A DNA stretch of 55,660 bases from a virus. The notes under the pieces are model-generated. The model searched no databases. It worked only from the letters and a program-made list of their open reading frames with translations, and was not told the origin of the DNA. Location of the stretch: positions 1-55,660 of IMG/VR virus record IMGVR_UViG_3300028794_000001. One strand, 5' to 3'. The translations under genes and the position numbers were made by a program. Shown piece by piece: positions 5,075-44,187 of this stretch. Every line of letters begins with the position of its first letter. Within the stretch, counting starts at the first letter, position 1.

Positions 5075-5115
5075 TACAGTCTCCCTGTAACCATCCACCC
5101 TAGCACAGGGACAGC

Positions 5116-7913: not shown

Positions 7914-8136
7914 CGCGGCGCGGCTGTTCCTGCTCCTCCTTCATCCGGGCCTTTTCAACATCCTTAGCTTTTAAGTGCGTTAACACTACTCTCCAATGAT
8001 CTTATTTTACTCTATTAGTAGTAGGAACAGTAGGAACACCATAGTTAGCTCAACAAATACAAATGGTTCTACTGTTCCTGGTAGTGTTCCGGCCTGATCC
8101 TGCTCCTACTCACTTGCTTTTGGCGCGTGTTCCTGT
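7711..8136. repeat. Iteron cluster (8 copies of (C/G)TGTTCC(T/G)) around an AT-rich stretch
   Basis: Direct copies near 7712, 7754, 7925, 8073, 8085 (variant) and 8128. Two tandem inverted copies lie at 8023-8040 (TAGGAACAGTAGGAACAC). The AT-rich core is about 7960-8070. Confidence 0.6.
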
Positions 8137-8638: not shown

Positions 8639-11251
8639 TTGCGCGTTGCGTTCTACCATTCGAACAGAGACAACGTCCCGAAAAGCGCTGACCTCACATG
8701 GGGGCAGCTCGCAGAGGTTCTAACCCAGCATCAGATGACCCCCTGCGCGCCCTGTGGGGGGCATGACTGCGCGCTCAAGTTCGGCCGCGCATGGTCGCCC
8801 GCGGATCTGGACGTGCGACGTACTGAGCCCAATGTGCGCAGCATCGGCGCGCTGGTGCTGGACTTCGACGGGCTGAGCGAGACCCTCGCGCGTGACGCCT
8901 TGCAGCGCCTCAGCGCCTTCACGAACATCGTCTACACCACCCATTCGCACGCGGTGATGCAGCTCGAGCAGCCGCCGCGCTTCAGCTTCCGTGCAGTCAT
9001 TCAGCTGAGCCGATCCGTAGCGGCGGCGGACTGGCGCGGGTTCCTCGCGCGTGCAGTGACATACCTTGGTGTCGCGGCGTTCCCAGGCATCGCCGAGTGC
9101 GGCGATCTCTCACGCCTCTACTTCTTGCCGACCGCGTCAGTCGGCTCGCGCCCCGTCGCAGCGGCGCACGATGGCGTCGCGATGAACGTCGATGCGATCA
9201 TGGCGTTGCCCGCGCCTCCCATCGCGACCACAGCCCCCCGCGCGGTCGCAGCGGTGAACGTCCCGGGGATCGTCTGGCAGGACCCCGCTACGGTGGACCT
9301 GGAGGCCCTGCGTAAGGCCCTGCGCTCGGTCAGCAATGAGACCTCGAAGCCTTTGGCACAGGCAATCCTGAAGGGCGAGGCGGTGGGCTGGAGCGACGCG
9401 CAGCGCCGCCAGGGCGCGCCGCAGCTGGGCAGGGATCACGGCCTCCAGCGCGCGAGCAGCTTGGTGGCTTGGGCTTGCCCCCTCGGCACCCCGCTGCCCG
9501 CGCTATTCGAGTTGCTTCGCCCCACCTTCAATGGGATGGATCTCGCGCCCGAGGGCCCGGACTACTGGCGCGCGGAGATCGACGACATGCTGCGCCGCGC
9601 GGTGGCGCGCAAGGCTGAGGCCGAAGCTCGTGAGAATCTCGAGCACCAGCGGTTACTAGACGTCACCTTCGGTCCAGGGTTCGGCCCGGACAACAGCTTC
9701 AAGCCGGTGGGCAGTACGCCCAGCGCAGCGGGCGGCACGACGGGAAGCGTGCCTGTACCCGCGTTCGCGCCCCTTGGGGGCGCACCGGCCCTTTCGCCCG
9801 CCCCTGCGCGGGACTTGCTTGATGAGCTGTGCGCTCAGTACGCGGGGGCGGGCCCGCCGGTCCCTACCCCGGCCGTCGCTAGCCTCCCCGCGGCGCCGGT
9901 CGAATCAGAAGGGGACGCCAGCTGGACCAAGGCGCTGCTGTACAAGACCGACAAGAACGGCAATCAGACCGAGCTGCGCGGGTGCCCCGCCAATGCGAGC
10001 ACGATTCTGAGGCACGACACGCACTGGCGCGGGATGGTCCGCCGCAATGAGTTCACCGGAGCGGCGGAGATTTGGGGCGGACCTATCTTCCAGCAACAGC
10101 CTCCCAAGCCCCTGCCGGTGACCGACGAGCACGTGACGAAGATCGCCATGTGGCTGCAGCAACGTCCCGAGATAGCGATGAGGTTCGACATCAGCACCCA
10201 GTCCCTTTACGAGGTGATCAACGCGGTAGCGAGCGACCACAGCTACCACCCGATTCGCGACTATTGCGATGAGGTGGAGTGGGACGGCGCCCCCCGCCTT
10301 GACAGCTGGCTGGAGACCTACCTAGGGGCGAAGCTTTTAGATGCTGCGGGCGAGGACATTACCGCGTACGTGCGCGCCGCCGCCGCGAAATGGCTGATCG
10401 CCGCCGTGGCACGCGTCTACGAGCCTGGCTGCAAGGTCCAGAACGTATTGATCCTGGAAGGTGAGCAGGGGCTTCGTAAGAGCACAGCCTTCGAGGTATT
10501 GGCCTCGCGCCCATTCTTCACGGACCAAACGATGGATATCGGCCACAAGGACACCTCCATTGCCACGACGAAGAACTGGATTGTCGAGCTGGCCGAGCTG
10601 GACGCCTTCCGCAAGAGCGAGCACACCCAAGCCAAGGCATTCTTCACGCGCGATTGGGAGTCCTACCGGCCGCCTTACGGAAGGCACGAGATCAAGCGCC
10701 CGCGCGTCTGCATCTTCGGGGGCACCAGCAACCGCGATGACTACCTGACAGACCCTACAGGCAACAGGCGCTACTGGCCGGTGGTCTGTACGAAGGTCGA
10801 CGTGGCTGCGCTGGAACGCGACCGTGATCAGCTTTGGGCTGAGGCAGTGGCGCGCTACCAGGCGGGCAAGGCGGAGCGCAGCGATTGCCTGTGGTGGCTG
10901 ACGAAGGCGGAGGAGGAGATCGCGTTCCGTGCGGCGGAGGAGCGCGTCGCCCCTGACGATTGGGAGGACAAGATCCTGCGTTGGTGGGCGCAGGTTGCTG
11001 GACGCCCCATGGATGTGCGGATCGGCACGGTGCTGGAAATCGCTTTGGGGTTCACCGCGGACAAGATGCACCATGGGGTAAGCACCCGCGCGGGGGCGTG
11101 CCTGAAGAAGCTGGGCTTCACGCGGAAGCGGAAGCGCGAAGCAGGTCGCCTGTTGTGGTACTACGAGCCCGGGGGGGCGCTGGCAAACGTGCAAACGGCT
11201 ATACCCGCTGGGGTCATGGGGCATCTGTCTATGCTGCCCGGGGGGGCTTGA
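8639..11251 (+). CDS. Primase-polymerase fused to a VirE/D5-type P-loop helicase
   Basis: N-terminus: AEP-like LVLDFDG and YTTHSH. C-terminus: VLILEGEQGLRKST (Walker A) and IFGGTSNRDDYLTDPTGNRRYWPV, typical of the VirE family. TTG start is uncertain. Confidence 0.88.
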   Translation: MRVAFYHSNRDNVPKSADLTWGQLAEVLTQHQMTPCAPCGGHDCALKFGRAWSPADLDVRRTEPNVRSIGALVLDFDGLSETLARDALQRLSAFTNIVYTTHSHAVMQLEQPPRFSFRAVIQLSRSVAAADWRGFLARAVTYLGVAAFPGIAECGDLSRLYFLPTASVGSRPVAAAHDGVAMNVDAIMALPAPPIATTAPRAVAAVNVPGIVWQDPATVDLEALRKALRSVSNETSKPLAQAILKGEAVGWSDAQRRQGAPQLGRDHGLQRASSLVAWACPLGTPLPALFELLRPTFNGMDLAPEGPDYWRAEIDDMLRRAVARKAEAEARENLEHQRLLDVTFGPGFGPDNSFKPVGSTPSAAGGTTGSVPVPAFAPLGGAPALSPAPARDLLDELCAQYAGAGPPVPTPAVASLPAAPVESEGDASWTKALLYKTDKNGNQTELRGCPANASTILRHDTHWRGMVRRNEFTGAAEIWGGPIFQQQPPKPLPVTDEHVTKIAMWLQQRPEIAMRFDISTQSLYEVINAVASDHSYHPIRDYCDEVEWDGAPRLDSWLETYLGAKLLDAAGEDITAYVRAAAAKWLIAAVARVYEPGCKVQNVLILEGEQGLRKSTAFEVLASRPFFTDQTMDIGHKDTSIATTKNWIVELAELDAFRKSEHTQAKAFFTRDWESYRPPYGRHEIKRPRVCIFGGTSNRDDYLTDPTGNRRYWPVVCTKVDVAALERDRDQLWAEAVARYQAGKAERSDCLWWLTKAEEEIAFRAAEERVAPDDWEDKILRWWAQVAGRPMDVRIGTVLEIALGFTADKMHHGVSTRAGACLKKLGFTRKRKREAGRLLWYYEPGGALANVQTAIPAGVMGHLSMLPGGA

Positions 11252-11276
11252 CAGGTTCGGTCGTTTTACTGTTTAG
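11248..11276 (+). promoter_or_regulatory. Class I motif: TTGACA-N13-TACTGT within TTTTACTGTTTAG
   Basis: Intergenic, 32 nt upstream of ATG 11305. The TTGA contains the primase stop codon. Confidence 0.5.
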
Positions 11277-14686: not shown

Positions 14687-14748
14687 CAGCCCCGTCCGCG
14701 CCAGGTGAGAGCGAGCGGGGCGTCTTGTCCGGTCGAAATAGACTGGGT

Positions 14749-14825
14749 GGTGTTCGAATCCCGATTGGTTCGGGAGTATGTCCCTTAGAGGGCAGGAGAC
14801 GCCGGTTCGAATCCGGCCGACATCG
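14749..14825 (+). other. tRNA-like element (perfect T-arm plus acceptor 3-prime half; cloverleaf incomplete)
   Basis: GCCGG-TTCGAAT-CCGGC at 14801-14817. The acceptor pairs 6 of 7 (GGTGTTC/CGACATC). D-like arm TCCCG-ATTGGTT-CGGGA. I found no convincing anticodon stem. A second GTTCGAATCC lies at 14752. Confidence 0.3.
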
Positions 14826-19206: not shown

Positions 19207-19527
19207 ATGAACACGATGCTCGAGCTTGTCGAAGACGCTTTGCTGAGCGCGCTTGAAGAGGCGGGTCCGAAGCTCCCTAAGGATTTCTCGATTCGGATTC
19301 CTGACAAGGCTTACGCCGCACTCGCGCACGCTGCACCGGCGCCGCATATGATCGCTGGCGGGTACACCATCAGGATCTACCCAGACAGCGCTCTCACATT
19401 GTTCGAAGACATGACGCTTGCCGAATGGATCGAGCACACCACAGCTACGGCGCTGAACGACGCGCCCGAAGACGACTTTCGACGAAGGGCCGCCGCAGCG
19501 CTCCGGAAGGTCAGGACCGGCAAGTGA
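19207..19527 (+). CDS. Hypothetical protein (106 aa)
   Basis: I moved the start to ATG 19207, after GGAG. Product: MNTMLELVEDALLSALEEAG... Confidence 0.6.
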   Translation: MNTMLELVEDALLSALEEAGPKLPKDFSIRIPDKAYAALAHAAPAPHMIAGGYTIRIYPDSALTLFEDMTLAEWIEHTTATALNDAPEDDFRRRAAAALRKVRTGK

Positions 19528-21740
19528 CCCCCGAGCGAAACTACTGGGCATTCGACCTAGAAACCGACCTCATTATGCCCGGGTTGCTGGCGCCCCCGCC
19601 GGTCTGCGCGTCGGTCTCGGACGCCAAGGGGGCTAAGAAGATCCTCGCCGATGCTGAGATCCTTCCATGGGTCGCGCACGAGTTGGACCGATCGATCTGG
19701 ATCGGCGCCAATATCGCCTACGACTTCGGAGTGATCGGCGCCTACTCCCCCTCCCTCGTGCGCTCGATCTTCAAGGCCTACAGGGAAGGCCGGGTCTTCG
19801 ACATTCAGATTGCACAGGCCCTCGATGCCATCGCCAAGGGCACCCTGTTCAAGGACCCGCGCACCGGGGGCGGGCTGAAGGACCCGACGACAGGCAAAAG
19901 CAAAAACCGCTACTCCTTGTCCATCGTGACGGACCTGGTACTTGGGCGAAAGGACGCCAAGGCAAATGACTGGGCGCGCTTGCGCTACTCGCTCTTCCGC
20001 GGCGTACCGCTCGCCGGCTGGACCGAGCATGCGCGGGCGCTCGGCTGCGTTGACCCCGAGGGCGTTACTCAGTACCCGCTGGATGATGCAGGCAATACGA
20101 TGAGCTGTGCGCTCGGGCAGCGCGGACACGAAAACCTTCAGGAAATGGCCGCGCAGTCCTACACCGCTTGGTGCATGCACCTTGGCTCGATGTGGGGTCG
20201 CCGAACGGATCCTGTAGCGGTTGCGAATCTGAAGACGATTATCGAAGCCAAGCACGCAAAGGCTGTGATCGATTTCAAGGCCTCCGGGCTGCTCGACGAG
20301 AACGGCGACGAAGACCAGATCGTCAAGAAGCGGATGGTCGCGACTGCGTACGGCGCAACGGGCATTTGCCCGGCGTGCGTCGGAAGCGGAAAGGTGATCA
20401 GCGAGAAGAGCGGCAACCCGATTCAGTGCAAGGTCTGCAGCGCGACGGGGCTCAACATTGCTTCCGCACCCACGCTCAAGCTGACGGACACCGGGGGCGT
20501 CTGCGCGGATCGCGATGCTCTTTCGGAGTCTGGCGATGATCTGCTAGAGAGCTACGCCGACGTTTCGAACATCAACAAGCTTCGCAACACCTACCTTCCT
20601 TTTCTTGAGCTTGGAACGAAGCAACCGGTCAACGTTCAACCTAATGTGATCGTCGAGAACGGGCGTACCTCGTATGAGGGGCTGATCCAGCTCATCCCGC
20701 GACAGGGAGGGATTCGCGAGTGCTTCCTTCCGCGCGAGGGTTGGCTTTACTGCTCGACCGATTACCCCGCCCTGGAAATGACGACGCTCGCACAGGTCTG
20801 CATGTGGATCGTGGGCTGGTCGCAGCTCCAACAGGCGATTGACGCCAAGCTGGATTTGCACAGCGCCTTCGCGGCGAAGCTGACCGGGAAGAGCTATGAC
20901 GAGTTCTACGCGCTGATCCTCGCGAAGGACAAATGGGCGAAGGGCATTCGCCAAGCCTGCAAGGCCGCTAATTTCGGCTTCCCCGGGTACATGGGCGCAG
21001 CCCGATTCGTTGCCTCCAAGCGCGCGCAGGAGAACTTACGGATCTGCATCTCATTGGGACAAGCCCCGAAGTGCGAGACCTGCCAAGGCGTCGAGGGTAT
21101 CGATTGCAAACGCTGCTACGGGCGCGGATTCCTTTGCGCTCTGGTCAAGGTTACCGAGTGGAACAACCGGAAGACCACCCCGACGTGTAAGCACTGCCTC
21201 GAGCTTGCCGAGGACCTGAAAAAGGGGTGGTTTGCCCAGTGGTCCGAGATGAAGTCCTATTTCGATTTCATCAAAAAGCAATGCGCGAGTCCCCTCGGGG
21301 GGAAGCTGCGTCAGTTCGTCAGCAACCGGTGGCGCGGCAACCTCGACGTCATGAATGGCGCGAACACGCTTTTCTCCGGCCTTGCCGCGGATCTGGCGAA
21401 ATACGCGCTGCGGCTGATCAGCGACGAAGCGTACACCGACGAGAACAGCGCACTTTGGGAGACACGTCCGCTCGAGCTGATCCACGACGAGGTGTTCAGC
21501 GAGATGCCCGAAGCCCGCGCACATGCGGCGGCTTGGCGCCAGGCGGAGCTGTGTGACCAAGCTCTGGCGCGCTATTGCCCCGACGTGAAGCCAAAGAATG
21601 TGGAGCCCGCGTTGATGCGGCGGTGGTCGAAAGACGCCGAGCGGGTCGATGGGCCGGACGGGAAGTTGATCCCCTGGACGCCGAAGCGGAAGCCGGGCGA
21701 GGTGTTCATGTGGGAACCGGGCTACACGGCCGCAGCTTGA
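19524..21740 (+). CDS. Family A DNA polymerase with 3-prime-5-prime exonuclease domain and Zn-finger insertions
   Basis: I moved the start to GTG 19524 (GTGA overlap). Exo I FDLETD, motif B RQACKAANFGFPGYMG, motif C LIHDEVFSE. Insertions: CPACVGSG...CKVCSATG and CETCQG...CKRCYGRG. Confidence 0.92.
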   Translation: MTPERNYWAFDLETDLIMPGLLAPPPVCASVSDAKGAKKILADAEILPWVAHELDRSIWIGANIAYDFGVIGAYSPSLVRSIFKAYREGRVFDIQIAQALDAIAKGTLFKDPRTGGGLKDPTTGKSKNRYSLSIVTDLVLGRKDAKANDWARLRYSLFRGVPLAGWTEHARALGCVDPEGVTQYPLDDAGNTMSCALGQRGHENLQEMAAQSYTAWCMHLGSMWGRRTDPVAVANLKTIIEAKHAKAVIDFKASGLLDENGDEDQIVKKRMVATAYGATGICPACVGSGKVISEKSGNPIQCKVCSATGLNIASAPTLKLTDTGGVCADRDALSESGDDLLESYADVSNINKLRNTYLPFLELGTKQPVNVQPNVIVENGRTSYEGLIQLIPRQGGIRECFLPREGWLYCSTDYPALEMTTLAQVCMWIVGWSQLQQAIDAKLDLHSAFAAKLTGKSYDEFYALILAKDKWAKGIRQACKAANFGFPGYMGAARFVASKRAQENLRICISLGQAPKCETCQGVEGIDCKRCYGRGFLCALVKVTEWNNRKTTPTCKHCLELAEDLKKGWFAQWSEMKSYFDFIKKQCASPLGGKLRQFVSNRWRGNLDVMNGANTLFSGLAADLAKYALRLISDEAYTDENSALWETRPLELIHDEVFSEMPEARAHAAAWRQAELCDQALARYCPDVKPKNVEPALMRRWSKDAERVDGPDGKLIPWTPKRKPGEVFMWEPGYTAAA

Positions 21741-21765
21741 CCGGCGGTTTCATTTTACTGTTAAA
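21737..21765 (+). promoter_or_regulatory. Class I motif: TTGACC-N13-TACTGT within TTTTACTGTTAAA
   Basis: Intergenic, 15 nt before ATG 21777 (with AGGAGG between). The TTGA contains the polymerase stop codon. Confidence 0.5.
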
Positions 21766-21776
21766 TAGGAGGCGTG

Positions 21777-21938
21777 ATGAAAACACTCAACCGCGACGTT
21801 CTTGCGAAAATGACTGCGACCGAGATTCGTTTGCGCCTCGGGCTGCCAGTGGCTGATTTGAGCGCCTGCAGCGTCGACGCCTTGGAGACGACCGTCGCGC
21901 TCGACTGCGCCGCGCTTGCGGCGAAGGCGGGGCGATGA
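21777..21938 (+). CDS. Small hypothetical protein (53 aa)
   Basis: AGGAGG precedes ATG 21777. The stop overlaps ATG 21935. Not in the ORF track. Confidence 0.5.
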   Translation: MKTLNRDVLAKMTATEIRLRLGLPVADLSACSVDALETTVALDCAALAAKAGR

Positions 21939-22579
21939 CCAGGTTCGTCTTCAACGTGGGCGACGGGCGTATCGTCACCCCCATCTCGCTCGGCGGCTAC
22001 CCGGTGATTTACTGGGATCCCCCATGGGGCTACGACGACCCCGGCACCGACGGCGGGGTCGGTCACGAATACCAGACGATGACCTTTGAGCAACTCGCTG
22101 CACTGCCTCTCGACACGCTCGCGGCGCCTACCTGCGCGATGTTCATGTGGGCCACGCGCCCGCGGATGGAAGAGGCGCTTGCATTGATCCGCGCGCACGG
22201 ATTCGAATACGTGAACGAGGCGTTCACCTGGGTCAAGACGAAGGGCACCAACGTTGACGGCTCCGGAAAGCCCTTCCTTGGGCTCGGGAGGATGACCCGC
22301 GGGAATACCGAGCCTTGCCTTTACGCGCGCCGCGGGAAGCCGAAGCGCGCCGACGCCGGGGTGTCTCAGGTCGTCGTGACGAACGAGCTGATTGTCGCCC
22401 CGCTCGGGCAGCACAGCGCGAAGCCCCCAGAAACCCGAGAGTTGATCGCCCGCTTGATGGGCGAGACCCCGCGCGTAGAGCTGTTCGCGCGCGACGCTGT
22501 CCCAGGCTGGGACGGATGGGGGAACCAGTACCCGATGCCGGCGGGACGCCCGGCGCTGACCTTGGAGGAAACAACATGA
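21935..22579 (+). CDS. MT-A70 family DNA N6-adenine methyltransferase
   Basis: VIYWDPPWGY (DPPW catalytic motif), EYQTMTFEQL, GQHSAKPPE. Confidence 0.85.
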   Translation: MTRFVFNVGDGRIVTPISLGGYPVIYWDPPWGYDDPGTDGGVGHEYQTMTFEQLAALPLDTLAAPTCAMFMWATRPRMEEALALIRAHGFEYVNEAFTWVKTKGTNVDGSGKPFLGLGRMTRGNTEPCLYARRGKPKRADAGVSQVVVTNELIVAPLGQHSAKPPETRELIARLMGETPRVELFARDAVPGWDGWGNQYPMPAGRPALTLEETT

Positions 22580-23511
22580 ACGAAATGGTGCAGAAGCTGA
22601 AGCAGGCGATTGACGCGGATCGTGCGCGGTTCAAACTCGACCCGATTTCAAACAACGCGGCTCGAGAGATCCTCGTGCAGATAGGCACCGAGGGGGCGCA
22701 ATGGATCATCAACGGCGGAGGCAACTCCGACAGCGCACATACCGGTCAGCGAATGACCGGGCTGAATCAGTACCAGCAGGAGGTCAAACGCACTTCGAAT
22801 CGCGACCTCAAGGCATATCCGGAATGCCTGCGCGCGGCCGTTGCGGCGATGGTACGCGCGGCCGACGGTATCGTAGGGCCCGATGACCCGTCTAAATTGC
22901 GCCAGCAGGCGCAGGAGCTGTTGAAGATCTGGGATCGGCTCATCTGGGGTTTGGGGTTGGCAGGCGAGGCGGGCGAGGTGACCGACGGGCTCAAGAAAAA
23001 ATACGGACATGGGAAGGCCGTTTCAGACGAATACTTCAAGCTCGAGCTTGGGGACGGCGGATGGTACGGCAATGCGCTGGCCGACAGTTTCGGCTTTACC
23101 GCAGAAGACGTCGCGACGGCGAATTCCGTCAAACTTCGCAAGCGGCACCCCGTGGGGTTCACCGTCGAATCAGCCAACGCGAAGGCCGATGAGGCTCCGC
23201 GTCAATTGACGCAACGCGAGCAGGAAGACGCTGAAGCACTCGCGCAACGTAAGCCTATGTGCTGGGCGACGGCTCCAGTACCCGGTCAATGGATGTGTAA
23301 CCGCGGCACAGGGCATCCGGGCGACCACATAGCGTCCAATGGATATGTAATCTTGGAACGCTGGGCCGCTCCCGCCGTGTTCCACGCATGCGGCGCGCGC
23401 GACCCGAGCCCCGGTCAGTTCCAGTCGAGCTTCCCTTGCAGGTTGACCGACGGTCACGACGGCGACCACATTAGCTCGGACGGGCAGTGGAGCCGGGAGC
23501 GTATCCGGTGA
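22576..23511 (+). CDS. MazG-like nucleotide pyrophosphohydrolase core fused to two C-terminal Cys/His modules
   Basis: I moved the start to ATG 22576 (ATGA overlap). GLAGEAGEVTDGLKKKYGHGK...ELGDGGWY is MazG-like. Tail modules: C..PGQW.C..GTGHPGDHIASNG and C..PGQF...C..TDGHDGDHISSDG. Confidence 0.65.
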   Translation: MNEMVQKLKQAIDADRARFKLDPISNNAAREILVQIGTEGAQWIINGGGNSDSAHTGQRMTGLNQYQQEVKRTSNRDLKAYPECLRAAVAAMVRAADGIVGPDDPSKLRQQAQELLKIWDRLIWGLGLAGEAGEVTDGLKKKYGHGKAVSDEYFKLELGDGGWYGNALADSFGFTAEDVATANSVKLRKRHPVGFTVESANAKADEAPRQLTQREQEDAEALAQRKPMCWATAPVPGQWMCNRGTGHPGDHIASNGYVILERWAAPAVFHACGARDPSPGQFQSSFPCRLTDGHDGDHISSDGQWSRERIR

Positions 23512-24714: not shown

Positions 24715-24737
24715 CCAGCGACAGTTTTACTGTCAAG
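24704..24737 (+). promoter_or_regulatory. Class I motif: TTGACG-N18-TACTGT within TTTTACTGTCAAG
   Basis: TACTGT ends 6 nt before ATG 24740, which fits a leaderless transcript. Confidence 0.5.
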
Positions 24738-25335: not shown

Positions 25336-25599
25336 ATGAACGAAAGCAAGCAGATGGTCGACGGCACGCCGAGTGCTCGTCTCGCGGACATGAATCCATT
25401 GGTTCGAGCAGCACGCGTGCAGCATCTTCAGGCAGACATGGCGCTTCAGCTTGCGATCCGCAAGGGGCACATCGATGAGGTCGCGCTGCTCGCCCAGCAC
25501 AAAACCGAGTGCATCGATCAGCTGATCGAGATCATGAACGCCGTCGAGCCCGGGTGCTTCGATCTTCCGGAGATGTTCGAGATCGTGGAGGTTCCGTGA
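25336..25599 (+). CDS. Hypothetical protein (87 aa)
   Basis: I moved the start to ATG 25336 (MNESKQMVDGTPSARL...). The stop overlaps GTG 25596. Confidence 0.55.
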   Translation: MNESKQMVDGTPSARLADMNPLVRAARVQHLQADMALQLAIRKGHIDEVALLAQHKTECIDQLIEIMNAVEPGCFDLPEMFEIVEVP

Positions 25600-26303
25600 T
25601 CATCGGGATCGTAGGCAAGAGCGGGAGCGGCAAGGACACAGCGGCGGGCTTCGTACCGGGTGCCAAACGCTTCAGCTTCGCGGACCCGCTGAAGAAGTTC
25701 GCGGGCGAGGTCTTCGACTGGAGCGAGGAGACGCTTTACGGATCCAGTGAGCTGCGCAACGTGCCGGACAAGCGCTATCCGCGCGGACCTTGCACGGCTT
25801 GCTTCGGCGGGCCGCACAGTTACGCCTACGGCCCCTCCGGGAAGTGCAGCCGCTGCGAAGGCGCGGGCATCGAGTACCTCACCCCCCGCTATGCGCTGCA
25901 GACCCTCGGCACCGAGTGGGGGCGCAGCTGCTTCGCGGACACGTGGGCGGTCCTCGGGGTTCGCAAGGCAAAGGAGTGGCGTGAGCAAGTTACGCACGAG
26001 TACGGCTGCCCGCGCGATGGCGAGTGGGTCGAATGGGCTTGCGATCACAGGTGCCCTTCAATTGCGGTTTTCTCGGATTGTCGCTTCGTCAACGAGGCGA
26101 CGGCGATCAGGGCCGCGGGCGGGGTCGTTTGGCGGATCGTTCGTCCGGGCGTTGGTGCAGCGAGTAGCCACCCGTCTGAAACGGAACAGGATTCACCGGA
26201 GATGGAGCGGCTGATCGATTGGACCGTCAAAAATACAGGGTCGCTCGATGTTTTGAAGAGTCGCGTGCTCGAAGCATTCGCAGCCTGTAGGATGACCCCG
26301 TGA
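25596..26303 (+). CDS. Deoxynucleoside monophosphate kinase with Zn-finger insertion
   Basis: I moved the start to GTG 25596. P-loop IIGIVGKSGSGKDT, FADPLKKFA, YALQTLGTEWGR, VFSDCRFVNE. Insertion: CTACFGG...CSRCEGAG. Confidence 0.8.
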   Translation: MIIGIVGKSGSGKDTAAGFVPGAKRFSFADPLKKFAGEVFDWSEETLYGSSELRNVPDKRYPRGPCTACFGGPHSYAYGPSGKCSRCEGAGIEYLTPRYALQTLGTEWGRSCFADTWAVLGVRKAKEWREQVTHEYGCPRDGEWVEWACDHRCPSIAVFSDCRFVNEATAIRAAGGVVWRIVRPGVGAASSHPSETEQDSPEMERLIDWTVKNTGSLDVLKSRVLEAFAACRMTP

Positions 26304-26584
26304 GGCTCAGCGTTGAACGAAACGGTCACGATTTAGAGTATTCTCCGAAATGTACGCATTTGCGATGTACTTCCTGCAATTCTACTTTCCCTCTCTTTCA
26401 AACAGAATTCGCTCGCTGCCCGAACGCTACCCGTCCGGGAATCGCGCCGGTCGCGCGCAAGTCAGCACCGCGCTGCGTTCAGTGCTCGGTCGAGCTTTGC
26501 CCGGGACTCGATGACTACCATGGCCGAGACCTGCGACTCGTCGGCAAGTGCTCCCGCTGTCAGCGGAAGATCGTCAAGGGGTGA
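26300..26584 (+). CDS. Cys-rich hypothetical protein (94 aa)
   Basis: GTG 26300 overlaps TGA 26301-26303. Several CxxC pairs. A locally AT-richer stretch lies at about 26330-26410. Confidence 0.45.
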   Translation: MRLSVERNGHDLEYSPKCTHLRCTSCNSTFPLFQTEFARCPNATRPGIAPVARKSAPRCVQCSVELCPGLDDYHGRDLRLVGKCSRCQRKIVKG

Positions 26585-27203
26585 CTTTGCAGTCCTCAAC
26601 ATCGACGGCCGCGGCGTTCCAGTCCGTGTGCCCGCTCACTTCGCGGATTGCGCGGCGAAGCCCTCGCTTCCCCCAACGGCAGTGACCGCGGTGCCCTTCA
26701 AACACGTAGTCGATGGCGTGCCCCATCTCGTGCATGAGGGTGCTGGAAACCAGGTCTGCTGAAGGGGCGATCTCGAGCGCCTTCGTTTCTAGGTGTGCGT
26801 AGCCCCCGGCACAGAAGGGCTCGCCGTTCTCGAACCTGAACAGCACCCATCCGTTTCCGGTGCAAAGGGCTCGATCCTGGCCAGTGTAGAAGGGATGAAC
26901 GTGAACGCCCCAATCCTTCAGCGCCCGACACATTGCAGGGGCTTTCCAGCCCTTCACGCGTCGCGCGTAGCCTGCCAGTGCGCGATCTTCTACCTCCTGA
27001 AGCTCGGCGCAAGCGAAGTCCGTTGATCGCATGCCGCACCGGGTGATGCATTCAGGGACAGGCGGCGGTGCGACCCAGACCACCTCGAATGCCTGAGGTA
27101 AGGGCGGCTGCGCCGGGGTAGCGCACGCCGAGCAGCCTAGTGCCCACCATCCGAGCGCGAAGCCCGCTACCAGCCATCCGACGCGCTGTGCTCCGGGCGA
27201 CAT
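26574..27203 (-). CDS. Lipoprotein zinc metalloprotease (HExxH)
   Basis: Signal peptide with lipobox (WWALGCSAC), a HEMGH motif and six or more further Cys. ATG 27203 lies 1 nt after the upstream stop. Confidence 0.7.
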   Translation of the reverse strand: MSPGAQRVGWLVAGFALGWWALGCSACATPAQPPLPQAFEVVWVAPPPVPECITRCGMRSTDFACAELQEVEDRALAGYARRVKGWKAPAMCRALKDWGVHVHPFYTGQDRALCTGNGWVLFRFENGEPFCAGGYAHLETKALEIAPSADLVSSTLMHEMGHAIDYVFEGHRGHCRWGKRGLRRAIREVSGHTDWNAAAVDVEDCKVTP

Positions 27204-27204
27204 G

Positions 27205-28455
27205 TCAACGCACGAGGATCCCGCGCGAGCGATCCGGCCCGACCTTCTGCAGGCGCTCGACTTCGAAGTAGCTGCGGAAGGTGACGGAGAAGTCTCTCAT
27301 CGTCCCGTCTTCCGTCAAGCCCCACTGAAGCAGGGTCCCTCCGATGGAGGGGGCGCCGCCCAGCGACTTCGAAAACGCTGATCCGCCGCCCTGGAAGGTG
27401 CCACAAGCCATCGCGTTCACGCCGCGGACCTCGAGCAGCACGCGCGTGTGCCAGTGCCCCGCGAGCAGGATTTGCGGCTTCTCGCCGGGGGCGTACTTCT
27501 CGATTTGCTTCTGAAGCGCGTAGCTCAGCGCGTAGCTCGTGCCGCTGCGCGGGTGCCAGAGGTGAATCTTCGCCCCGAGGATGTCCAGGAAAGCGCCCCG
27601 GTCGCCGTAGAACCGGATGTCATCGCGCCCGCGCTTCGCGAAGTAGCCTTCGATGTAAGCGCCGACGTTGACGCCGCTTTTCTCGGTAAACGTGAAGTCA
27701 TGATTACCGGTGATCGCGTGGTAGCGCAGGCCCTTCTTTTTCGGAAGCACCTCAAACAGATCGCGCGTCTGGTCTTCGAGCCCCATGTGCGACATCTCGA
27801 ATTTGCCATGGCTGTAGTCGCCATCGGTCACGTCGCCGGGGTGAAGCACGTTGCGAACGCCTTGCGCGTACGCCCATTCGATGAAGTCGACGAGTTGCGC
27901 GCGCAGGCAGTATTTGGATCCTAGGTGCGTGTCGGAGATCACCGCCACCCGTTGAACGTCGCCGACGACCGGTGCGATCCCGGTTTGGTGGGTTCGCTCT
28001 TCGATGGTGCTCAAATCGAGCCCGACGTGGTCCCCGTTTACCTGGATGCGCATGCCCTGGCGTCGTGCGCCCTCGATCAGCCCGCGCAGCTTCGCCGGAG
28101 GGACGTCGAGCTTGTCGCAAAGCTGCTCGAAAGGCAGGGGAGACTTGCGCGTCAGGTCAACCAGGCGTTGCAGAAGCGCACCAGGGTCGCCTTCCCCCTT
28201 CGCATGCCTCCCATCCGGGACCTTCTCGCCCTGCGCGCGGCGGGCGCGCCGCTCGCGCACCTGCTTGGCTTTCTCGTTGTCGCAGACGCGACACCAATGG
28301 TTAAGTCCATCGTCACGCGTCTTGTCCCCGGAGAACGCTCCGAGCGCTTGGGGCTTGCCCTTCATCGGACAGGCCCGATTCGCGCAGATTTTGGTGAACC
28401 CGTTGACTTTGGTGCGGCGGGGAGTGGAGAGATCCGAGCTAAGACGACCTGGCAT
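27205..28455 (-). CDS. Zn-ribbon + winged-helix + calcineurin-like metallophosphoesterase
   Basis: CANRACP...WCRVCDN; FEQLCDKLDVPPAKLRGLIEGARRQGMRI; phosphoesterase motifs VISDTHLG, HPGDVTDG, ITGNHDF, HLWH, LAGHWH. Confidence 0.8.
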   Translation of the reverse strand: MPGRLSSDLSTPRRTKVNGFTKICANRACPMKGKPQALGAFSGDKTRDDGLNHWCRVCDNEKAKQVRERRARRAQGEKVPDGRHAKGEGDPGALLQRLVDLTRKSPLPFEQLCDKLDVPPAKLRGLIEGARRQGMRIQVNGDHVGLDLSTIEERTHQTGIAPVVGDVQRVAVISDTHLGSKYCLRAQLVDFIEWAYAQGVRNVLHPGDVTDGDYSHGKFEMSHMGLEDQTRDLFEVLPKKKGLRYHAITGNHDFTFTEKSGVNVGAYIEGYFAKRGRDDIRFYGDRGAFLDILGAKIHLWHPRSGTSYALSYALQKQIEKYAPGEKPQILLAGHWHTRVLLEVRGVNAMACGTFQGGGSAFSKSLGGAPSIGGTLLQWGLTEDGTMRDFSVTFRSYFEVERLQKVGPDRSRGILVR

Positions 28456-28480
28456 TTTTCACCTAGATGAGACGAGCCTT

Positions 28481-28514
28481 TAAACAGTAAAACGACGGGC
28501 TCGACGGGTGTCAA
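28481..28514 (-). promoter_or_regulatory. Class I motif: TTGACA-N19-TACTGT within TTTTACTGTTTA
   Basis: Read on the minus strand in the 63-bp gap upstream of ATG 28455 (28 nt from the motif). Confidence 0.5.
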
Positions 28515-28518
28515 TGCG

Positions 28519-28746
28519 CTAGAACGAGAGCTTTACACCAGCACCGGCCGACCATCCCAGTTTAGAGGAAACCTGGGCGAAACCGAAGCCGGCCAGCTCG
28601 GGGAGGAAGCGGTACTCAGCCTCGACTCTCCCAACAACGCCGGTGTCTTCGGACGCGAACACCAGCGCGGACAGGGTCCCTGTCCGCACCGGGACGTCCG
28701 AAAGCACCTTGTCAAGCCCCGTTCGTAAAGGTGCGAACGGATCCAA
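28519..28746 (-). CDS. Small protein with an outer-membrane beta-barrel-like C-terminus
   Basis: TTG start. Ends ...GFGFAQVSSKLGWSAGAGVKLSF (alternating hydrophobic residues and a terminal Phe). No signal peptide. Confidence 0.4.
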   Translation of the reverse strand: MDPFAPLRTGLDKVLSDVPVRTGTLSALVFASEDTGVVGRVEAEYRFLPELAGFGFAQVSSKLGWSAGAGVKLSF

Positions 28747-29384: not shown

Positions 29385-29969
29385 TCAAGACGGGGTAGAG
29401 GCGTACAACTCAGACCAGGCAGTCTGAACCTGTGCCTTTACAGAAAGTTTTTGGGATCGTGCACGAAGTACAGGGGCACGAAGTATTTCCAGCTCCCGTC
29501 CTGTCACGAAGCCTGGCAACTGAAAATGGGGGCGGTCCTTGCGCGCCCAGCTCCCGCCCCACACGAGATCGTGCCGCTGGCACACATCCCCGAGCAGATC
29601 GTACGCGACGTTGCCCCATTCGGGCTGGAGTCCTGCGCGTGTCATGTCGGCGTCGGCACAGACATCGAAGGCGATCCCGAAGTTGTGCGCGGAGTACCCG
29701 CCGCGCGCGTCGGTGACGATCCGCAGCTGCTGGCCGGCGGCGTCGTAGACGCGGGTGCGCCCCTGCGCGAAGAGAGCGTCTTGCGCCTCCCAACTCCGGA
29801 ATCCGCCGCCGCTGTTCGGCCCGTTGAAGTCGGCGACGACGTAGTAGTTGCGCCCGTAGCGCTGGCATTCCGCGAGTACCGCAAGCGCGCGCTCAAGGAA
29901 CGGTGGGAAGACCAGGTCCAAATCGACCCTGAACTTCCCGGTAGCGTATTGGAGCAAGTCGACCGGCAC
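29385..29969 (-). CDS. Endolysin, peptidase M15 (VanY / L-Ala-D-Glu peptidase type)
   Basis: FRSWEAQDALF, YSAHNFGIAFDV (SxHxxGxAxD), WGGSW...DRPHF. Confidence 0.85.
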   Translation of the reverse strand: MPVDLLQYATGKFRVDLDLVFPPFLERALAVLAECQRYGRNYYVVADFNGPNSGGGFRSWEAQDALFAQGRTRVYDAAGQQLRIVTDARGGYSAHNFGIAFDVCADADMTRAGLQPEWGNVAYDLLGDVCQRHDLVWGGSWARKDRPHFQLPGFVTGRELEILRAPVLRARSQKLSVKAQVQTAWSELYASTPS

Positions 29970-42825: not shown

Positions 42826-44187
42826 TTACTCGACCAGCGTGCCGCGGATCGTAGTCTGCAGGATCGCGCCGGCCAGCGTCGCGATGAATACGACGTCGTT
42901 CAGGGTGCGCGCCGCCTTGTCTGCGTCGGACACGTCGGCGACGTCCGGCACGTTGACCACGGGCGCCGGACTGGCGGAGAGGAACTTGGACTTGACCGAG
43001 ACCGTGCCGGAGAACAGCTCCCCGCGCACCGCCGATTGGATCGCGCCGATGCCGTCGTTCGTGAAGGCGAGCTTGTCGCTGCCCGAGATCACGTCGTAGG
43101 CCGCCGCCTGGATGTTGGTGATCAGCGCCTCGCTGCCGATGATGATGTCGACCCACTCCCCGCCGGCGGTCTTCCCATTGCGCGTGCGCCCGACGAGTCC
43201 GAGCCGCTCGTAGATCCCGATGTTGCGCGAGGTGAGGTTCGCGCGCTGGGTCGACGTGAGCGAGTAGTAGTCGACGCCCGCCAGGTTCTTGTCGCTCCAA
43301 GTCGCCGAGCCCGGGTCGGTGGGCAGGAGGCGGCCTGCCTCCGCCGCGCCGAAGAACTTGTCGTTCTGAGGGTGGTAGACCAGCCGCGTCTTGGTGTACC
43401 CGTTCGCCTTCAGGTACTCGCCCACGTCGTCGGTCCCGCTGATGGTGTTCTGAGCGTTCAGGCTGTCCTGCGTCTGGCACAGGGCGAGCTTCTTGTTCGC
43501 TTGCGCGTAGACCGCCAGCGCGGTGTTGATCACCTTCGAATGCCAGGGCGCGCAGACCGCGTACCAATCGTTGTCGAACACGGCGATGGCGGCGAGGTCC
43601 GCGGCGAGGCCGGGGTCCGTGGTGTCCTCGAGCACGGCCAGCCGGTCGTACATCACAGGCTCGACCTTCACGGAGAGGAACGTGCCCGCGGCCATGTCAA
43701 GGTCGAGATCCGTCGCGCCGTCGGTCGTGGTGATCCCGGAGATGGACAGGGCAGTGATGTCCGACTCCAGCCCGGTGTTGATCTCCTGCGCGGTCCCGCT
43801 TCCGTCAGAGGTGTAGGCGATGGGGTTGCCGTTCACCTCGAAAGCGTAGTCGGTCGTGTTGCCCGCGACCGGGGTGATCTTGAATGAAGGCGCGGCGCGG
43901 TTCAGGCACTTGCCGACCTTCACCCGATCCGGACAGGGGTTCTGCGCGAAGAAAGCGGTAGCGATCAGGACTTCGGGGCCGGTCGCGCTGAAGCCATCGG
44001 TCACCATGTCGTCGGTGTTCTCGTACTCGCGCACGCGATCCGCGAAGAGCTGGTGCGAGGAAAGGATCAACGGAATCCCATACCCCACGCGCGGGAAGCC
44101 CGCTCCGGAGATCGAGATCGTGACGTCAACGATGCTGGAAATGGGCACGTGCGCGCTCCGTGAGTAAAGACCCCCGGAGCCTAGCAA
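42826..44187 (-). CDS. Tail sheath protein (DUF3383-like)
   Basis: 453 aa. N-terminal ...VPISSIVDVTISISGAG pattern. Precedes the tube gene. Confidence 0.8.
   Translation of the reverse strand: MLGSGGLYSRSAHVPISSIVDVTISISGAGFPRVGYGIPLILSSHQLFADRVREYENTDDMVTDGFSATGPEVLIATAFFAQNPCPDRVKVGKCLNRAAPSFKITPVAGNTTDYAFEVNGNPIAYTSDGSGTAQEINTGLESDITALSISGITTTDGATDLDLDMAAGTFLSVKVEPVMYDRLAVLEDTTDPGLAADLAAIAVFDNDWYAVCAPWHSKVINTALAVYAQANKKLALCQTQDSLNAQNTISGTDDVGEYLKANGYTKTRLVYHPQNDKFFGAAEAGRLLPTDPGSATWSDKNLAGVDYYSLTSTQRANLTSRNIGIYERLGLVGRTRNGKTAGGEWVDIIIGSEALITNIQAAAYDVISGSDKLAFTNDGIGAIQSAVRGELFSGTVSVKSKFLSASPAPVVNVPDVADVSDADKAARTLNDVVFIATLAGAILQTTIRGTLVE

Follow-up and report, generated by a model that had tools for sequence, protein, structure and literature searches.

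The function of phage metallophosphoesterases (MPEs) has been tied down only recently, to host-chromosome destruction by the A1 protein of phage T5 and by a mycobacteriophage protein, Gp48. T5 A1, a pre-early product encoded in the first-step-transfer region and classed as a 'DNA transfer protein' (PHROG_1745), has as its partner the DNA-binding protein A2. It is a predicted metallophosphatase resembling double-strand-break repair and proofreading nucleases and is both necessary and sufficient for degradation of the host chromosome (bioRxiv 10.64898/2026.04.02.716235). Gp48 of mycobacteriophage A10ZJ24 (cluster A) is an early MPE with five motifs and phosphodiesterase activity that disrupts host genomic DNA, thereby silencing defence genes (PMC12287305). 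At the cell envelope, a secreted phage-derived metzincin and its TIMP-like lipoprotein partner sensitise walls to lysins in Listeria (PMC8235301). Here we describe a phage locus in which an MPE gene is coupled to a gene for an exported protease-like protein. The original prediction knew of no phage system with this pairing; we found none either, and the second gene has neither a database model nor a match among GenBank phages.

The locus lies in a 55,660-nt stretch of viral DNA (IMG/VR record IMGVR_UViG_3300028794_000001; hereafter the window), at the end of the phage's late gene block. Gene 1 (27205..28455, minus strand) encodes a 416-aa protein with a zinc ribbon, a winged helix and an MPE domain, and gene 2 (26574..27203, minus strand) encodes a 209-aa, Cys-rich, zincin-like protein predicted to be exported and of putative lipoprotein type. 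A Shine-Dalgarno-like AGGTG (28460..28464, minus strand) is found 4 nt 5' of the gene 1 ATG, and the junction between the genes reads cgtTGAcATG, that is, a stop codon, 1 nt and an ATG, as had been predicted. GC content by codon position is of the coding type in gene 1 (0.66/0.45/0.80) and in gene 2 (0.68/0.54/0.71), homologs were found for both, and the two are confirmed as real, coupled genes. While the source's own gene call (P0121) covers just the last 90 aa of gene 2, the full 209-aa reading frame is supported by homology spanning residues 8 to 206. The predicted position between the early block and the lysis genes was also correct: one flank holds an M15 endolysin (29385-29969), a 200-aa protein and a 75-aa protein whose gene precedes the pair and stops at 28519, and the other holds a converging early/nucleotide block with a dNMP kinase (25509-26303). 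Nucleotide-metabolism neighbours in the window and its relatives include dNMP kinase, MazG, dGTP_diPhyd_N and HD proteins.

Upstream of gene 1 a class I promoter had been proposed, and TTGACA-N19-TACTGT does lie exactly at 28514-28484. However, a generic sigma-70 consensus scan of this site returned no promoter, and the 19-nt spacing is non-canonical and differs between copies of the motif. The element should instead be read as a conserved, partly palindromic putative regulatory or promoter motif of this phage group. In full it is TTGACA-N16-TTTTACTGT followed by TTAA (28484..28514, minus strand; one exact match, at this site), with the core TTTTACTGT at 28484-28492 on the minus strand, 5' of gene 1. 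The exact core occurs six times in the window, each time just 5' of a gene start; all six copies are 15-45 nt before the start codon and have TTGAC(A/C/G) 7-16 nt further 5'. When one mismatch is allowed there are 11 copies in the window against 2.1 expected, and none of 100 shuffles reached 11. Related loci have an equivalent motif directly 5' of their MPE gene, namely TTTTACTGTTAA in L071, GTTTAACAGTTA in L001 and TAACTGTTA in L073; in all, the motif precedes the MPE in four related phages. In the window and in L073 it is also found ahead of replication, methylase and nucleotide genes. Because one copy (54020) falls within the head-gene block, the motif alone is no marker of early expression. 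The pair does have its own copy of a recurring, promoter-like motif, but there is no terminator-like site between the 75-aa gene and the motif, making read-through from the late operon likely and the label of a self-contained operon unsupported.

Gene 1 has all three of the parts predicted for it. A Cys4 zinc-ribbon-like module (CX4C...CX2C; residues 24-58; 28282..28386, minus strand) contains C24-x4-C29 and C55-x2-C58, is followed by a basic helix, and has Lar-like zinc-ribbon proteins and the N-terminus of endonuclease VII as weak PHROG matches. AlphaFold confidence over this module is low because few of the aligned sequences have it. A winged helix-turn-helix (residues 91-146; 28018..28185, minus strand) was modelled with pLDDT >90, compared with 83 for the whole protein, as helices 91-103, 109-116 and 120-132 and a beta-hairpin with strands 137-140 and 143-146. 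The region is conserved throughout the family, whose profile weakly matches the SelB winged helix. Together, the zinc ribbon and the winged helix suggest nucleic-acid binding. The DP1/Mre11-like calcineurin-type phosphoesterase domain (residues 167-396; 27268..27957, minus strand) holds the complete set of motifs (SDTHLG, GDVTDG, GNHD, HLWH, GHWH) with intact catalytic residues; across 42 homologs there is no variation at D175, H177, D208, N251, H252, H301, H334 or H336. Gene 1 belongs to the calcineurin-like metallophosphoesterase superfamily, scoring 34.9 bits with Pfam Metallophos PF00149 (cut-off 21.5; E 2.8e-8) and 33.2 bits with PF12850 (cut-off 27).

We recovered 414 homologs of gene 1 at E <= 1e-3, with about 60% identity over the winged helix and MPE domain, a level seen even between 55-kb phages and megaphages. 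The family is large and phage-only, with many members in 230-570 kb megaphages, and is essentially absent from cultured phages. Four independent comparisons identified the archaeal 3'-5' proofreading exonuclease PolD DP1 as the closest relative of the MPE domain in both structure and sequence: DP1 was the top Foldseek match in the PDB (E 1e-9, TM-scores about 0.4), the family profile retrieved DP1 from PDB sequences (E 2.5e-4), the PolD small subunit was the best NCBIfam model (E 4e-11), and the matches in BFVD included phage proteins that carry the annotation 'DNA polymerase II small subunit'. PHROG matches were to 'DNA repair exonuclease', 'exonuclease' and MPE families. Membership in the DP1 family itself was rejected on a score of 42.4 bits with NF003118 (cut-off 445) and on the TM-scores. 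No PolD large subunit (DP2) was found among the window ORFs scanned, and the replicative polymerase of this phage is of family A, with its own Exo I/II/III motifs (FDLET, NIAYD, YPLDD). We likewise rejected Mre11/SbcD, for which there was a marginal SbcD-like match (PHROG_100, E 0.011, residues 156-263) and no Mre11 in the top PDB structural matches. The part of the window ORFs that was scanned contained no SbcC/Rad50.

Neither does gene 1 belong to the T5 A1 family. PHROG_1745 was not among its matches at E <= 0.1, the gene 1 family HMM had no match in L069, which holds an A1-type gene, and phmmer found no match between gene 1 and the A1-type proteins of L069, L075 and L077. Like T5 A1, gene 1 is a phage-encoded calcineurin-type phosphoesterase, and it stands in a slot that A1 homologs hold in those three loci. 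Unlike A1, a protein of about 550 aa with an N-terminal domain of roughly 250 aa, it has a winged helix and is 416 aa long, and its partner is an exported protease-like protein rather than a DNA-binding one. The likeness to Gp48, as a phage MPE with five motifs, is one at superfamily level; a zinc ribbon, a winged helix and a protease partner are not reported for Gp48. The original prediction allowed for a routine NinI-type phosphatase. Ser/Thr phosphatases of the PPP type carry the signature GDxHG, GDxVDRG and GNHE, whereas gene 1 has SDTHLG, GDVTDGDY (no Arg-Gly) and GNHD and has no protein phosphatase match in PHROG, and this assignment was discarded. Rv0805 and GpdQ were among the lower-ranked Foldseek matches, and, for all its likeness to DP1/Mre11, gene 1 may be a phosphodiesterase with some other substrate.

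Substrates of signal peptidase II are recognised by the lipobox [LVI][ASTVI][GAS]C. The N-terminus of gene 2 (residues 1-27; 27123..27203, minus strand) has R7, a 16-residue hydrophobic stretch and two lipobox-like sites, ALG-C24 and CSA-C27; the export signal of the original prediction is thus present, but neither lipobox is fully canonical. A classical lipobox was found in 89 of 149 family members, and the others that we inspected are of the signal-peptidase-I type or N-terminally truncated; unless truncated, the inspected relatives begin with a hydrophobic signal-type segment. Export of the gene 2 protein is well supported. The predicted zinc-binding active site, HEMGH...H174 (residues 158-174; 26682..26732, minus strand), is followed by C175-x-W177. 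Both the HEMGH motif and the richness in cysteine noted earlier are family traits, as H158, E159, H162, H174 and W177 are invariant in the family alignment, C175 is nearly so, and the mature protein has 8 conserved Cys. HExxH is present in 148 of 149 members and HExxH...H[CT]xW in 120. The AlphaFold model (pLDDT 84.6) places strands at 99-145 ahead of the HEMGH-bearing helix (154-169). With an HExxH motif, a third ligand and an N-terminal beta-sheet subdomain in the model, the protein has the predicted make-up of a zincin, and its top Foldseek matches are all zincins.

Placement in any specific zincin family failed (best Foldseek E 0.14; best PDB profile match E 0.18). SprT-like (PF10263) and MPTase-PolyVal (PF18818) proteins share with gene 2 an HExxH helix and a downstream His, but SprT is cytoplasmic and gene 2 is predicted to be exported and disulfide-rich. 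Assignment to PF10263 was rejected, as the score of 17.5 bits falls short of the cut-off (25.6) and the match is confined to residues 148-174, and structural support for an active protease is weak. A metzincin was rejected as the third His comes 12 residues after the HExxH motif. An i-spanin has an N-terminal transmembrane segment and a periplasmic coiled coil, and an o-spanin is a short Pro-rich outer-membrane lipoprotein; we rejected a spanin for gene 2, whose globular, enzyme-like alpha/beta domain of 180 aa bears a catalytic motif, and no lipoprotein ORF is embedded within gene 2. T5 Llp and Cor are exclusion lipoproteins that are encoded near tail or lysis genes and block receptors, and they are not enzymes. 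Llp, Cor and the Listeria pair resemble gene 2 as exported phage-encoded envelope proteins, a functional analogy only, with no detectable homology of gene 2 to any of them. An exhaustive search yielded 158 representative homologs of gene 2, for a family of about 150 clusters, no match in 50,697 GenBank phages and none in reference genomes. Pfam, PHROG, NCBIfam and PADLOC hold no model for gene 2 (the Pfam SprT-like match being below cut-off), which by its sequence features represents a family, so far unannotated, of Cys-rich zincins that are exported and have an HExxH...H motif.

An MPE gene lies immediately 5' of gene 2 in 11 of 12 gene 2 loci, the exception being L070. These MPEs come from four subfamilies. 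The window and L079 have the gene 1 type; L071/72, L073, L076, L078 and L087 have a PHROG_284 'exonuclease'; L074 has a PHROG_221 protein; and L069, L075 and L077 have true T5 A1 homologs (PHROG_1745 match, E 1e-131; in L069 the protein shares 33% identity with T5 A1 across 88% of its length, E 6e-52). An N-terminal zinc ribbon is common to three of the MPE types, and that of gene 1 is 34-37% identical to those of the PHROG_284-type and A1-type proteins beside gene 2 homologs; the A1 homolog of L075 has a clearly related ribbon and that of L069 a shorter CxxC...CxxC version. Three loci have 1 nt between the MPE gene and gene 2, the two genes overlap by 4 nt in two loci, and where the genes are directly adjacent and the start is clear the gap in the other loci does not exceed 19 nt. 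The gene 2 tree does not track MPE type, which indicates that the MPE was replaced repeatedly while the pairing was kept. The conserved unit is therefore any MPE plus gene 2, rather than the particular MPE of gene 1. The lack of co-occurrence elsewhere that would have told against the original prediction is not what the gene 2 loci show. Co-occurrence seen from the other side is different: gene 2 was missing from all 68 gene-1 loci of the initial survey, although L079, found later, has it. The closest relative of gene 1, in L001, has the same synteny without gene 2, and a dGTP_diPhyd_N-like ORF comes next instead. Every gene 2 locus whose flanks are long enough lies at the end of a myovirus late operon. 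In L073, L069, L070 and L087, gene 2 is accompanied by small lipoproteins rich in Cys or Pro, and in megaphages the gene 1 homologs lie near genes for an Acb5-like protein and for NAPRTase and PRPP-synthetase-like proteins. A search of PADLOC-DB with gene 1, gene 2 and the partner proteins gave no match.

Our best, tentative reading, by analogy with T5 A1 and Gp48, is that a nuclease that degrades host DNA is co-expressed with a protease that acts on the envelope. The pair would make up a host-takeover module of two genes, whose products work in different places, the cytoplasm and the envelope. Gene 1 would be a cytoplasmic, DNA-binding, metal-dependent nuclease of the Mre11/DP1-like branch of calcineurin-type phosphoesterases, most likely degrading host (or other non-phage) DNA; loss of host DNA would shut off host expression and defences and feed the adjacent nucleotide-salvage genes (dNMP kinase, MazG). 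DNA degradation is the better-supported activity for gene 1, given its closeness to DP1/Mre11-like proteins and the T5 A1 homologs in the same slot of sister phages. Translational coupling would ensure that gene 2 is made at the same time. Its product, exported, usually lipid-anchored and held by four predicted disulfides, may be a zinc endopeptidase cutting an envelope protein. The likeliest purpose would be to inactivate a receptor or entry component, so that superinfecting phages are excluded or progeny are not trapped on debris; alternatively, it may loosen the envelope. Transcription of the pair would start at its own copy of the motif, which it has in common chiefly with replication and nucleotide genes, and would probably be supplemented by read-through from the late operon. 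For both proteins the enzymatic activity, what it acts on (host DNA in the case of gene 1) and when the genes are expressed are inferred.

The late-operon position of the pair bears on two other explanations, both of which we consider unlikely. In one, the pair extends the lysis cassette: the nuclease would clear residual host DNA, lower lysate viscosity and free virions, while the zincin would cut envelope proteins, possibly Lpp- or OmpA-type tethers or outer-membrane proteins, and might replace or aid spanins. Wherever the flank suffices, the pair forms the distal end of the late operon, directly after an endolysin and two small proteins of membrane or secreted type, and in the window no terminator separates it from them; the lipoproteins beside gene 2 in the four loci named above are reminiscent of o-spanins or protease inhibitors, and the Listeria metzincin and its lipoprotein partner offer a precedent for sensitisation to lysins. 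However, the MPE always stands between the lysis genes and gene 2, with its own conserved motif that replication-arm genes have too, MPEs of the A1 and Gp48 types are early-acting in the phages studied, and the globular, enzyme-like fold of gene 2 has neither the coiled coil nor the short Pro-rich peptide of known spanins. In the other, the genes are independent accessories without a functional link, adjacent by descent at the variable late-operon end of one myovirus group. The adjacency could indeed be synteny inherited within one phage group, since all long-flank gene 2 loci are myovirus late-operon ends and, sharing this synteny, are not independent observations. Such a view is also in keeping with the absence of gene 2 from the 68 gene-1 loci, with L001 and L070, where either partner occurs without the other, and with the different predicted compartments, as there is no obvious mechanistic link between a cytoplasmic nuclease and a periplasmic protease. 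Yet the MPE has given way to one of another subfamily three times or more with the adjacency intact, the adjacency spans phages that differ in their baseplate and lysis modules (a Mu-like type in L069 and an E217-like one in L073 and L074; M15 versus lysozyme endolysins), and start/stop coupling is tight in almost all loci.

The relationship of gene 1 to DP1 raises the prospect of a DP1-like proofreading or Mre11-like end-processing nuclease for phage replication or recombination, with gene 2 of the window unrelated to it; where the partner is a cytoplasmic SprT-like, mini-zincin or ClpP-like protein, such a pair might remove protein adducts from DNA. DP1 as the top structural and sequence relative, the peptidase-like gene that directly follows gene 1 homologs in about 10 of 23 gene-1-family lineages, and the very high conservation between 55-kb phages and megaphages are consistent with this role. 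We nevertheless regard it as quite improbable here, as the family A polymerase has its own exonuclease motifs, no Rad50/SbcC-like partner was present among the ORFs scanned, and gene 1 lies outside the replication block at the end of the late strand; gene 2, being exported, cannot act on DNA-protein adducts. An anti-defence phosphodiesterase hydrolysing cyclic oligonucleotides, cNMPs or another phosphodiester defence signal is less probable again, to the point of being far-fetched. The MPE superfamily does include cyclic-nucleotide phosphodiesterases, with Rv0805 and GpdQ among the lower structural matches, and the megaphage neighbours of gene 1 homologs are of anti-defence type. Against this, the top matches are nucleases rather than cNMP phosphodiesterases, a nucleic-acid substrate is suggested by the zinc ribbon and winged helix, T5 A1 homologs occupy the same slot, and there was no PADLOC match and no known anti-CBASS or anti-Pycsar enzyme in the structural and family searches. 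Destruction of a nucleotide signal had been among the original suggestions; nothing singles it out, and gene 1 is nearest to the DP1/Mre11-like nuclease branch.

Returning to host-DNA degradation as the preferred reading, gene 1 represents a third, very widespread conserved MPE family in the slot of A1 homologs and is a testable candidate for the same job. That exported, disulfide-rich zincins are almost always encoded right after an MPE of whatever subfamily points to a coordinated, previously undescribed takeover of cytoplasm and envelope. If these links are functional, they provide a handle on how nuclease-wielding phages control or complement host-DNA destruction and on the role of exported phage proteases; if the adjacency is inherited synteny only, the finding shrinks to two new family assignments.

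Gene-1-family MPE genes often precede a peptidase-like gene of another kind, namely a 122-aa HExxH, a SprT-like, a 116-aa HExxH or a ClpP-like protein. A broader and rather doubtful idea is that phages widely carry a module of a nuclease-type MPE and a small peptidase that work together and are both interchangeable, the peptidase being an exported Cys-rich zincin, a cytoplasmic mini-zincin, or a SprT-like or ClpP-like protein and the MPE being DP1-like, PHROG_284, T5 A1-like or PHROG_221. Were this true, then in the window version, as the nuclease destroys host DNA, the protease would prepare the envelope or protect it; in cytoplasmic versions the task of the protease would be to time or activate the nuclease, to remove it, or to free DNA of protein. 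The gene 2 family would then be a new exported zincin family of phage receptor-destroying or envelope-remodelling enzymes. Gene 2 and the peptidase-like megaphage neighbours of gene 1 homologs gave weak matches to PF10263 and PF18818, all below the cut-offs. In profile comparisons between gene 2 and the 122-aa, 116-aa and 251-aa neighbours, just the active-site strand and helix aligned.

The window is essentially one phage genome (55.7 kb, 64% GC); the ORFs that were scanned included no integrase. On the plus strand is a replication/nucleotide arm with a primase-helicase (8639-11251), a family A polymerase (19425-21740), a DNA methyltransferase (21935-22579), a MazG-like protein (22315-23511) and a dNMP kinase (25509-26303). 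A myovirus late arm occupies the minus strand and encodes the portal (54034-55650), a head protease, the major head protein, the tail sheath (42826-44187), tape measure and baseplate wedge proteins, an M15 endolysin (29385-29969), a 200-aa secreted/membrane protein and a small 75-aa protein whose end, ...GVKLSF, is of outer-membrane type (28519-28746). The two arms converge on a pair of minus-strand ORFs, gene 1 (416 aa, 27205-28455), which encodes a metallophosphoesterase (MPE), and gene 2 (209 aa, 26574-27203). Their junction reads TGA-c-ATG, and both ORFs, their coordinates and the 1-nt gap are as originally predicted. GC by codon position is of the coding type in both genes, and the GC content of the pair (0.60-0.68) is close to that of the genome (0.64), giving no sign of recent foreign acquisition.

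Gene 1 belongs to the calcineurin-like superfamily. It has the full set of five phosphoesterase motifs, none of which varies in 42 homologs, and its Pfam Metallophos score is over threshold, in agreement with the calcineurin-type phosphoesterase of the original prediction. The predicted winged helix was recovered at residues 91-146 of the AlphaFold model (pLDDT 83), packed ahead of the catalytic domain. Few aligned sequences extend over the N-terminal 53 residues, where most of the CX4C...CX2C ribbon lies, and model confidence there is consequently low; most family members have a helical N-terminal domain in place of the zinc ribbon.

By four methods, the catalytic domain is nearest to DP1, the small subunit of archaeal PolD and a 3'-5' proofreading exonuclease of the Mre11-like branch. 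Foldseek against the PDB retrieved DP1 with an E value of 1e-9, and matches in BFVD were phage proteins annotated 'DNA polymerase II small subunit'. A phmmer search of PDB sequences with gene 1 returned nothing; the family profile alone reached DP1 (E 2.5e-4). The NCBIfam match to the PolD small subunit (E 4e-11) scored 42 bits, far under the 445-bit cut-off, and membership in the DP1 family was rejected on this score. Membership in the A1, Mre11/SbcD and PPP/NinI families was rejected as well, which disposes of the NinI-type phosphatase suggested earlier as a routine match. PHROG matches fell in the 'DNA repair exonuclease' and 'exonuclease' families, and PADLOC gave no match to gene 1.

The gene 1 family comprises 414 matches at E <= 1e-3, with about 60% identity across the winged helix and MPE domain, on IMG/VR contigs of 25-530 kb that include megaphage-sized ones. 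Homologs in GTDB genomes were on MAG contigs only. A megablast search of the region against GenBank phages found nothing, and tblastn of gene 1 against 50,697 GenBank phages gave a sole match, in Halorubrum virus BLv36 (26% identity). From the contigs on which its members occur, this is in practice a phage family.

A word-indexed homolog search for gene 2 returned nothing. This blank was a sensitivity artefact: exhaustive searching with HMMER brought up 158 representative clusters, and a profile run against the indexed database retrieved only 7. The full alignment held no conserved pattern usable for retrieving loci, and sub-alignments yielded few. Sub-alignment patterns found no gene 2 in GTDB reference genomes, tblastn against GenBank phages gave no match, and no Pfam, PHROG, NCBIfam or PADLOC model covers the protein. 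We therefore regard gene 2 as representing an undescribed family of exported zincin-like proteins.

The export signal, the HExxH motif (HEMGH) and many cysteines noted in the original prediction are family features: members have a signal peptide at the N terminus (a classical lipobox is present in 89 of 149), HExxH in 148 of 149 and eight conserved cysteines in the mature part. A third invariant histidine, 12 residues past HExxH, precedes a C-x-W motif. In the AlphaFold model, which is confident (pLDDT 84.6), the topology is that of a zincin. The model's top PDB neighbours were all zincins (PprI/IrrE, anthrax lethal factor, karilysin, PPEP and selecase), at a best E value of 0.14, so that none is significant. 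By sequence, gene 2 qualifies as a zincin, one that falls in no described family. Identification as a spanin or as a SprT-type DNA-protein-crosslink protease was rejected by the fold, the export signal and the cysteine pattern.

The source gene call for gene 2 covered the last 90 residues only (P0121, alternative start). Homology extends from residue 8 onward, so the 209-aa ORF is the real gene, and the family is probably under-called in metagenome annotations. One 304-aa representative, P0191, has an HNH-endonuclease-like N-terminal region ahead of the signal peptide and zincin; the gene caller probably fused two neighbouring genes here. Genes for small lipoproteins, Cys-rich or Pro-rich, are coupled to gene 2 homologs in four loci of related uncultured phages, downstream in L073 (10552-10830), L069 (10585-10800) and L070 (4236-4508) and upstream in L087 (4657-4962); the window is without one. 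Their products could be o-spanin-like proteins or cognate protease inhibitors.

Whether the two genes co-occur depended on the gene from which loci were retrieved. None of the 68 surveyed gene 1 homolog loci (up to 10 kb of flank each) contained a gene 2 homolog, and the closest gene 1 relative, L001 (58% identity), shares synteny and the upstream motif with the window and lacks gene 2. From the gene 2 side, however, an MPE gene lies immediately upstream on the same strand in 11 of 12 core loci, the exception being L070, a 4.5-kb contig. Three loci have 1 nt between the two genes, two have a 4-nt overlap, and elsewhere the gap does not exceed 19 nt where the start is clear; in L087 a 101-aa lipoprotein gene separates them.

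The MPE preceding gene 2 is not always of the same type. One other locus, L079, retrieved later through gene 2, has the exact gene 1-type pair of the window. A PHROG_284 'exonuclease' type is found in L071/72, L073, L076, L078 and L087, a T5 A1 type (PHROG_1745) in L069, L075 and L077, and a PHROG_221 type in L074. The L069 protein matches T5 A1 at 33% identity across 88% of its length (E 6e-52). Three MPE types have an N-terminal zinc-ribbon module in common (34-37% identity), and the gene 2 tree is not congruent with MPE type. The conserved unit is thus best described as an exported zincin preceded by an MPE that usually has a zinc ribbon, and the adjacency across MPE types indicates that the MPE was displaced non-orthologously several times. 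As the original prediction had claimed for phage systems, we found no description in the literature of a conserved MPE and exported-zincin pairing, nor of a wider MPE and peptidase adjacency.

Such a wider adjacency is seen within the gene 1 family, where the directly downstream gene is peptidase-like in about 10 of 23 distinct lineages. These genes encode a 122-aa HExxH protein (L002/3/8, L006/7), a 251-aa SprT-like protein (L004/5), a 116-aa HExxH protein (L028), a ClpP-like protein of about 205 aa (L010, L011/15, L019, L082; NCBIfam E 8e-23) or gene 2 itself (window, L079). By our rough estimate, well under 1% of random small proteins would contain HExxH, which makes chance an unlikely source of the pattern. 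The megaphage HExxH neighbours were rejected as gene 2 homologs, as only the active-site strand and helix align; by this alignment they are zincin families distinct from gene 2. The recurrent adjacency of MPE and peptidase genes in megaphage-size and other contigs appears to be undescribed. In L021 and L024/25, the gene following the winged-helix MPE encodes a zinc-ribbon HNH protein of the endonuclease VII type. Megaphage MPE genes in L002/L003 (9668-17141) and L006 (9632-11661) neighbour genes for an Acb5-like/ClpX zinc-finger protein, a Dam-type methylase and RNase HII, along with NAPRTase and PRPP-synthetase-like genes that resemble an NAD+ reconstitution pathway, which suggests an anti-defence neighbourhood.

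The promoter originally predicted before gene 1, TTGACA-N19-TACTGT, is an exact match at 28514-28484. Its informative part is the core TTTTACTGT, with six exact copies in the window and 11 copies at up to one mismatch against 2.1 expected; none of 100 shuffles reached 11. All six exact copies lie 15-45 nt upstream of a start codon, each with TTGAC(A/C/G) 7-16 nt farther upstream. Four are in the replication/nucleotide arm (1856, 11264, 21753 and 24725), one precedes gene 1 and one follows the portal gene (54020). Sites of the motif, which in the window has the form TTTTACTGT(T/A)(T/A)A and stands upstream of many genes in both arms with variable TTGAC spacing, are at 783-791, 1856-1864, 11264-11272, 21753-21761 and 24725-24733, and on the minus strand at 28484-28492 and 54012-54020.

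Equivalent elements directly precede the MPE gene in L071 (TTTTACTGTTAA), L001 (GTTTAACAGTTA) and L073 (TAACTGTTA). Sites in relatives were located at 3573 and 6022 in L001, at 8583, 11616, 14695-14754 and 19880 in L073 and at 13018 in L069. In L001 and L073 the motif also precedes early genes, and its core is a palindrome, TAAC(A/T)GTTA, resembling an operator that overlaps a promoter. No promoter came up at the motif in a generic sigma-70 scan, and we therefore do not call it a sigma-70 promoter; no terminator was found between gene 1 and the preceding late genes. More than a plain sigma-70 promoter, the motif resembles an operator/promoter serving a phage regulator. Thus, of the claim that the pair is self-contained under its own promoter, a conserved regulatory element of its own stands; transcriptional isolation is not implied.

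Two phage MPEs with experimental data act early in infection to break down host DNA. Degradation of the host chromosome requires T5 A1, which also suffices for it, and the authors liken this protein to DSB-repair and proofreading nucleases (bioRxiv 10.64898/2026.04.02.716235). The other, Gp48 of mycobacteriophage A10ZJ24, is an early-expressed protein with phosphodiesterase activity that disrupts the host genome and silences defence genes (PMC12287305). A1 homologs occupy the genomic slot of gene 1 upstream of gene 2. Gene 1 is not an A1 family member, and it may act as A1 or Gp48 does without being a member of either family. We propose a host-DNA nuclease on the basis of catalytic residues that are intact, two modules that putatively bind nucleic acid and a structure like that of DP1, together with the slot shared with A1 homologs, nucleotide-salvage neighbours and a motif shared mostly with replication-arm genes. 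We hold this reading tentatively, at a little short of an even chance. Gene 2 is predicted to be co-translated with gene 1 and exported, and its most economical role would be proteolysis of an envelope protein, leading to receptor inactivation and superinfection exclusion or to envelope weakening; this assignment is less secure than that of gene 1.

Among the alternatives, the pair may reflect mere synteny with no functional link. All informative gene 2 loci are ends of myovirus late operons, so the arrangement may be shared by ancestry. However, the phage backbones differ, with a Mu-like baseplate and lysozyme in L069, E217-like backbones in L073 and L074, and an M15 endolysin in the window, L071 and L075. 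Part of the pairing signal may thus be inherited synteny; the comparative pattern is solid, and it is the function that we infer. A replication or repair role for gene 1 is weakened by the phage polymerase, which has its own Exo I-III motifs and makes proofreading in trans less probable. Other candidate roles are a late release module for the pair and a second-messenger phosphodiesterase for gene 1. If gene 1 is a host-DNA nuclease, it would join the phage MPE host-takeover nucleases, which are of a known kind; the exported-zincin partner is the new, undescribed element.

Several other features of these genomes were observed. Between the lysis genes and the MPE, the window (28519-28746, minus strand) and L001 (3335-3544) encode a small conserved protein of about 70-75 aa; equivalents that lack a gene call are at about 2650-2880 in L075 and about 8250-8560 in L073. 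The C-termini (...GAGVKLSF, ...GAGVRVVW and ...GAGLKLTF) resemble an outer-membrane beta-signal. No family matched the protein, which is left unannotated in some relatives and may be an unusual part of the lysis machinery or outer membrane. A possible origin or control region is the AT-rich intergenic stretch ahead of the replication arm (7960-8080), in which short direct repeats (GTAGGAACAGTAGGAACA) accompany the TTTTACTGT motif, present twice with one mismatch each. The family A polymerase (19425-21740, plus strand) has CxxC-rich insertions at residues ~314-343 and ~560-600 with a weak DnaJ CXXCXGXG-type match; phmmer detected no relative in the PDB, and the protein is an unusually divergent PolA with zinc-finger inserts. 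In most relatives, a gene with the N-terminal domain of dATP/dGTP diphosphohydrolase (dGTP_diPhyd_N) adjoins the MPE/gene 2 slot. It is the opposite-strand neighbour in L069, L073, L074, L075 and L079, and in L001 an uncalled copy (4916-5330, plus strand) directly overlaps the MPE stop. Its presence alongside MazG and HD genes is a hint that this phage group edits the dNTP pool and possibly has modified DNA.
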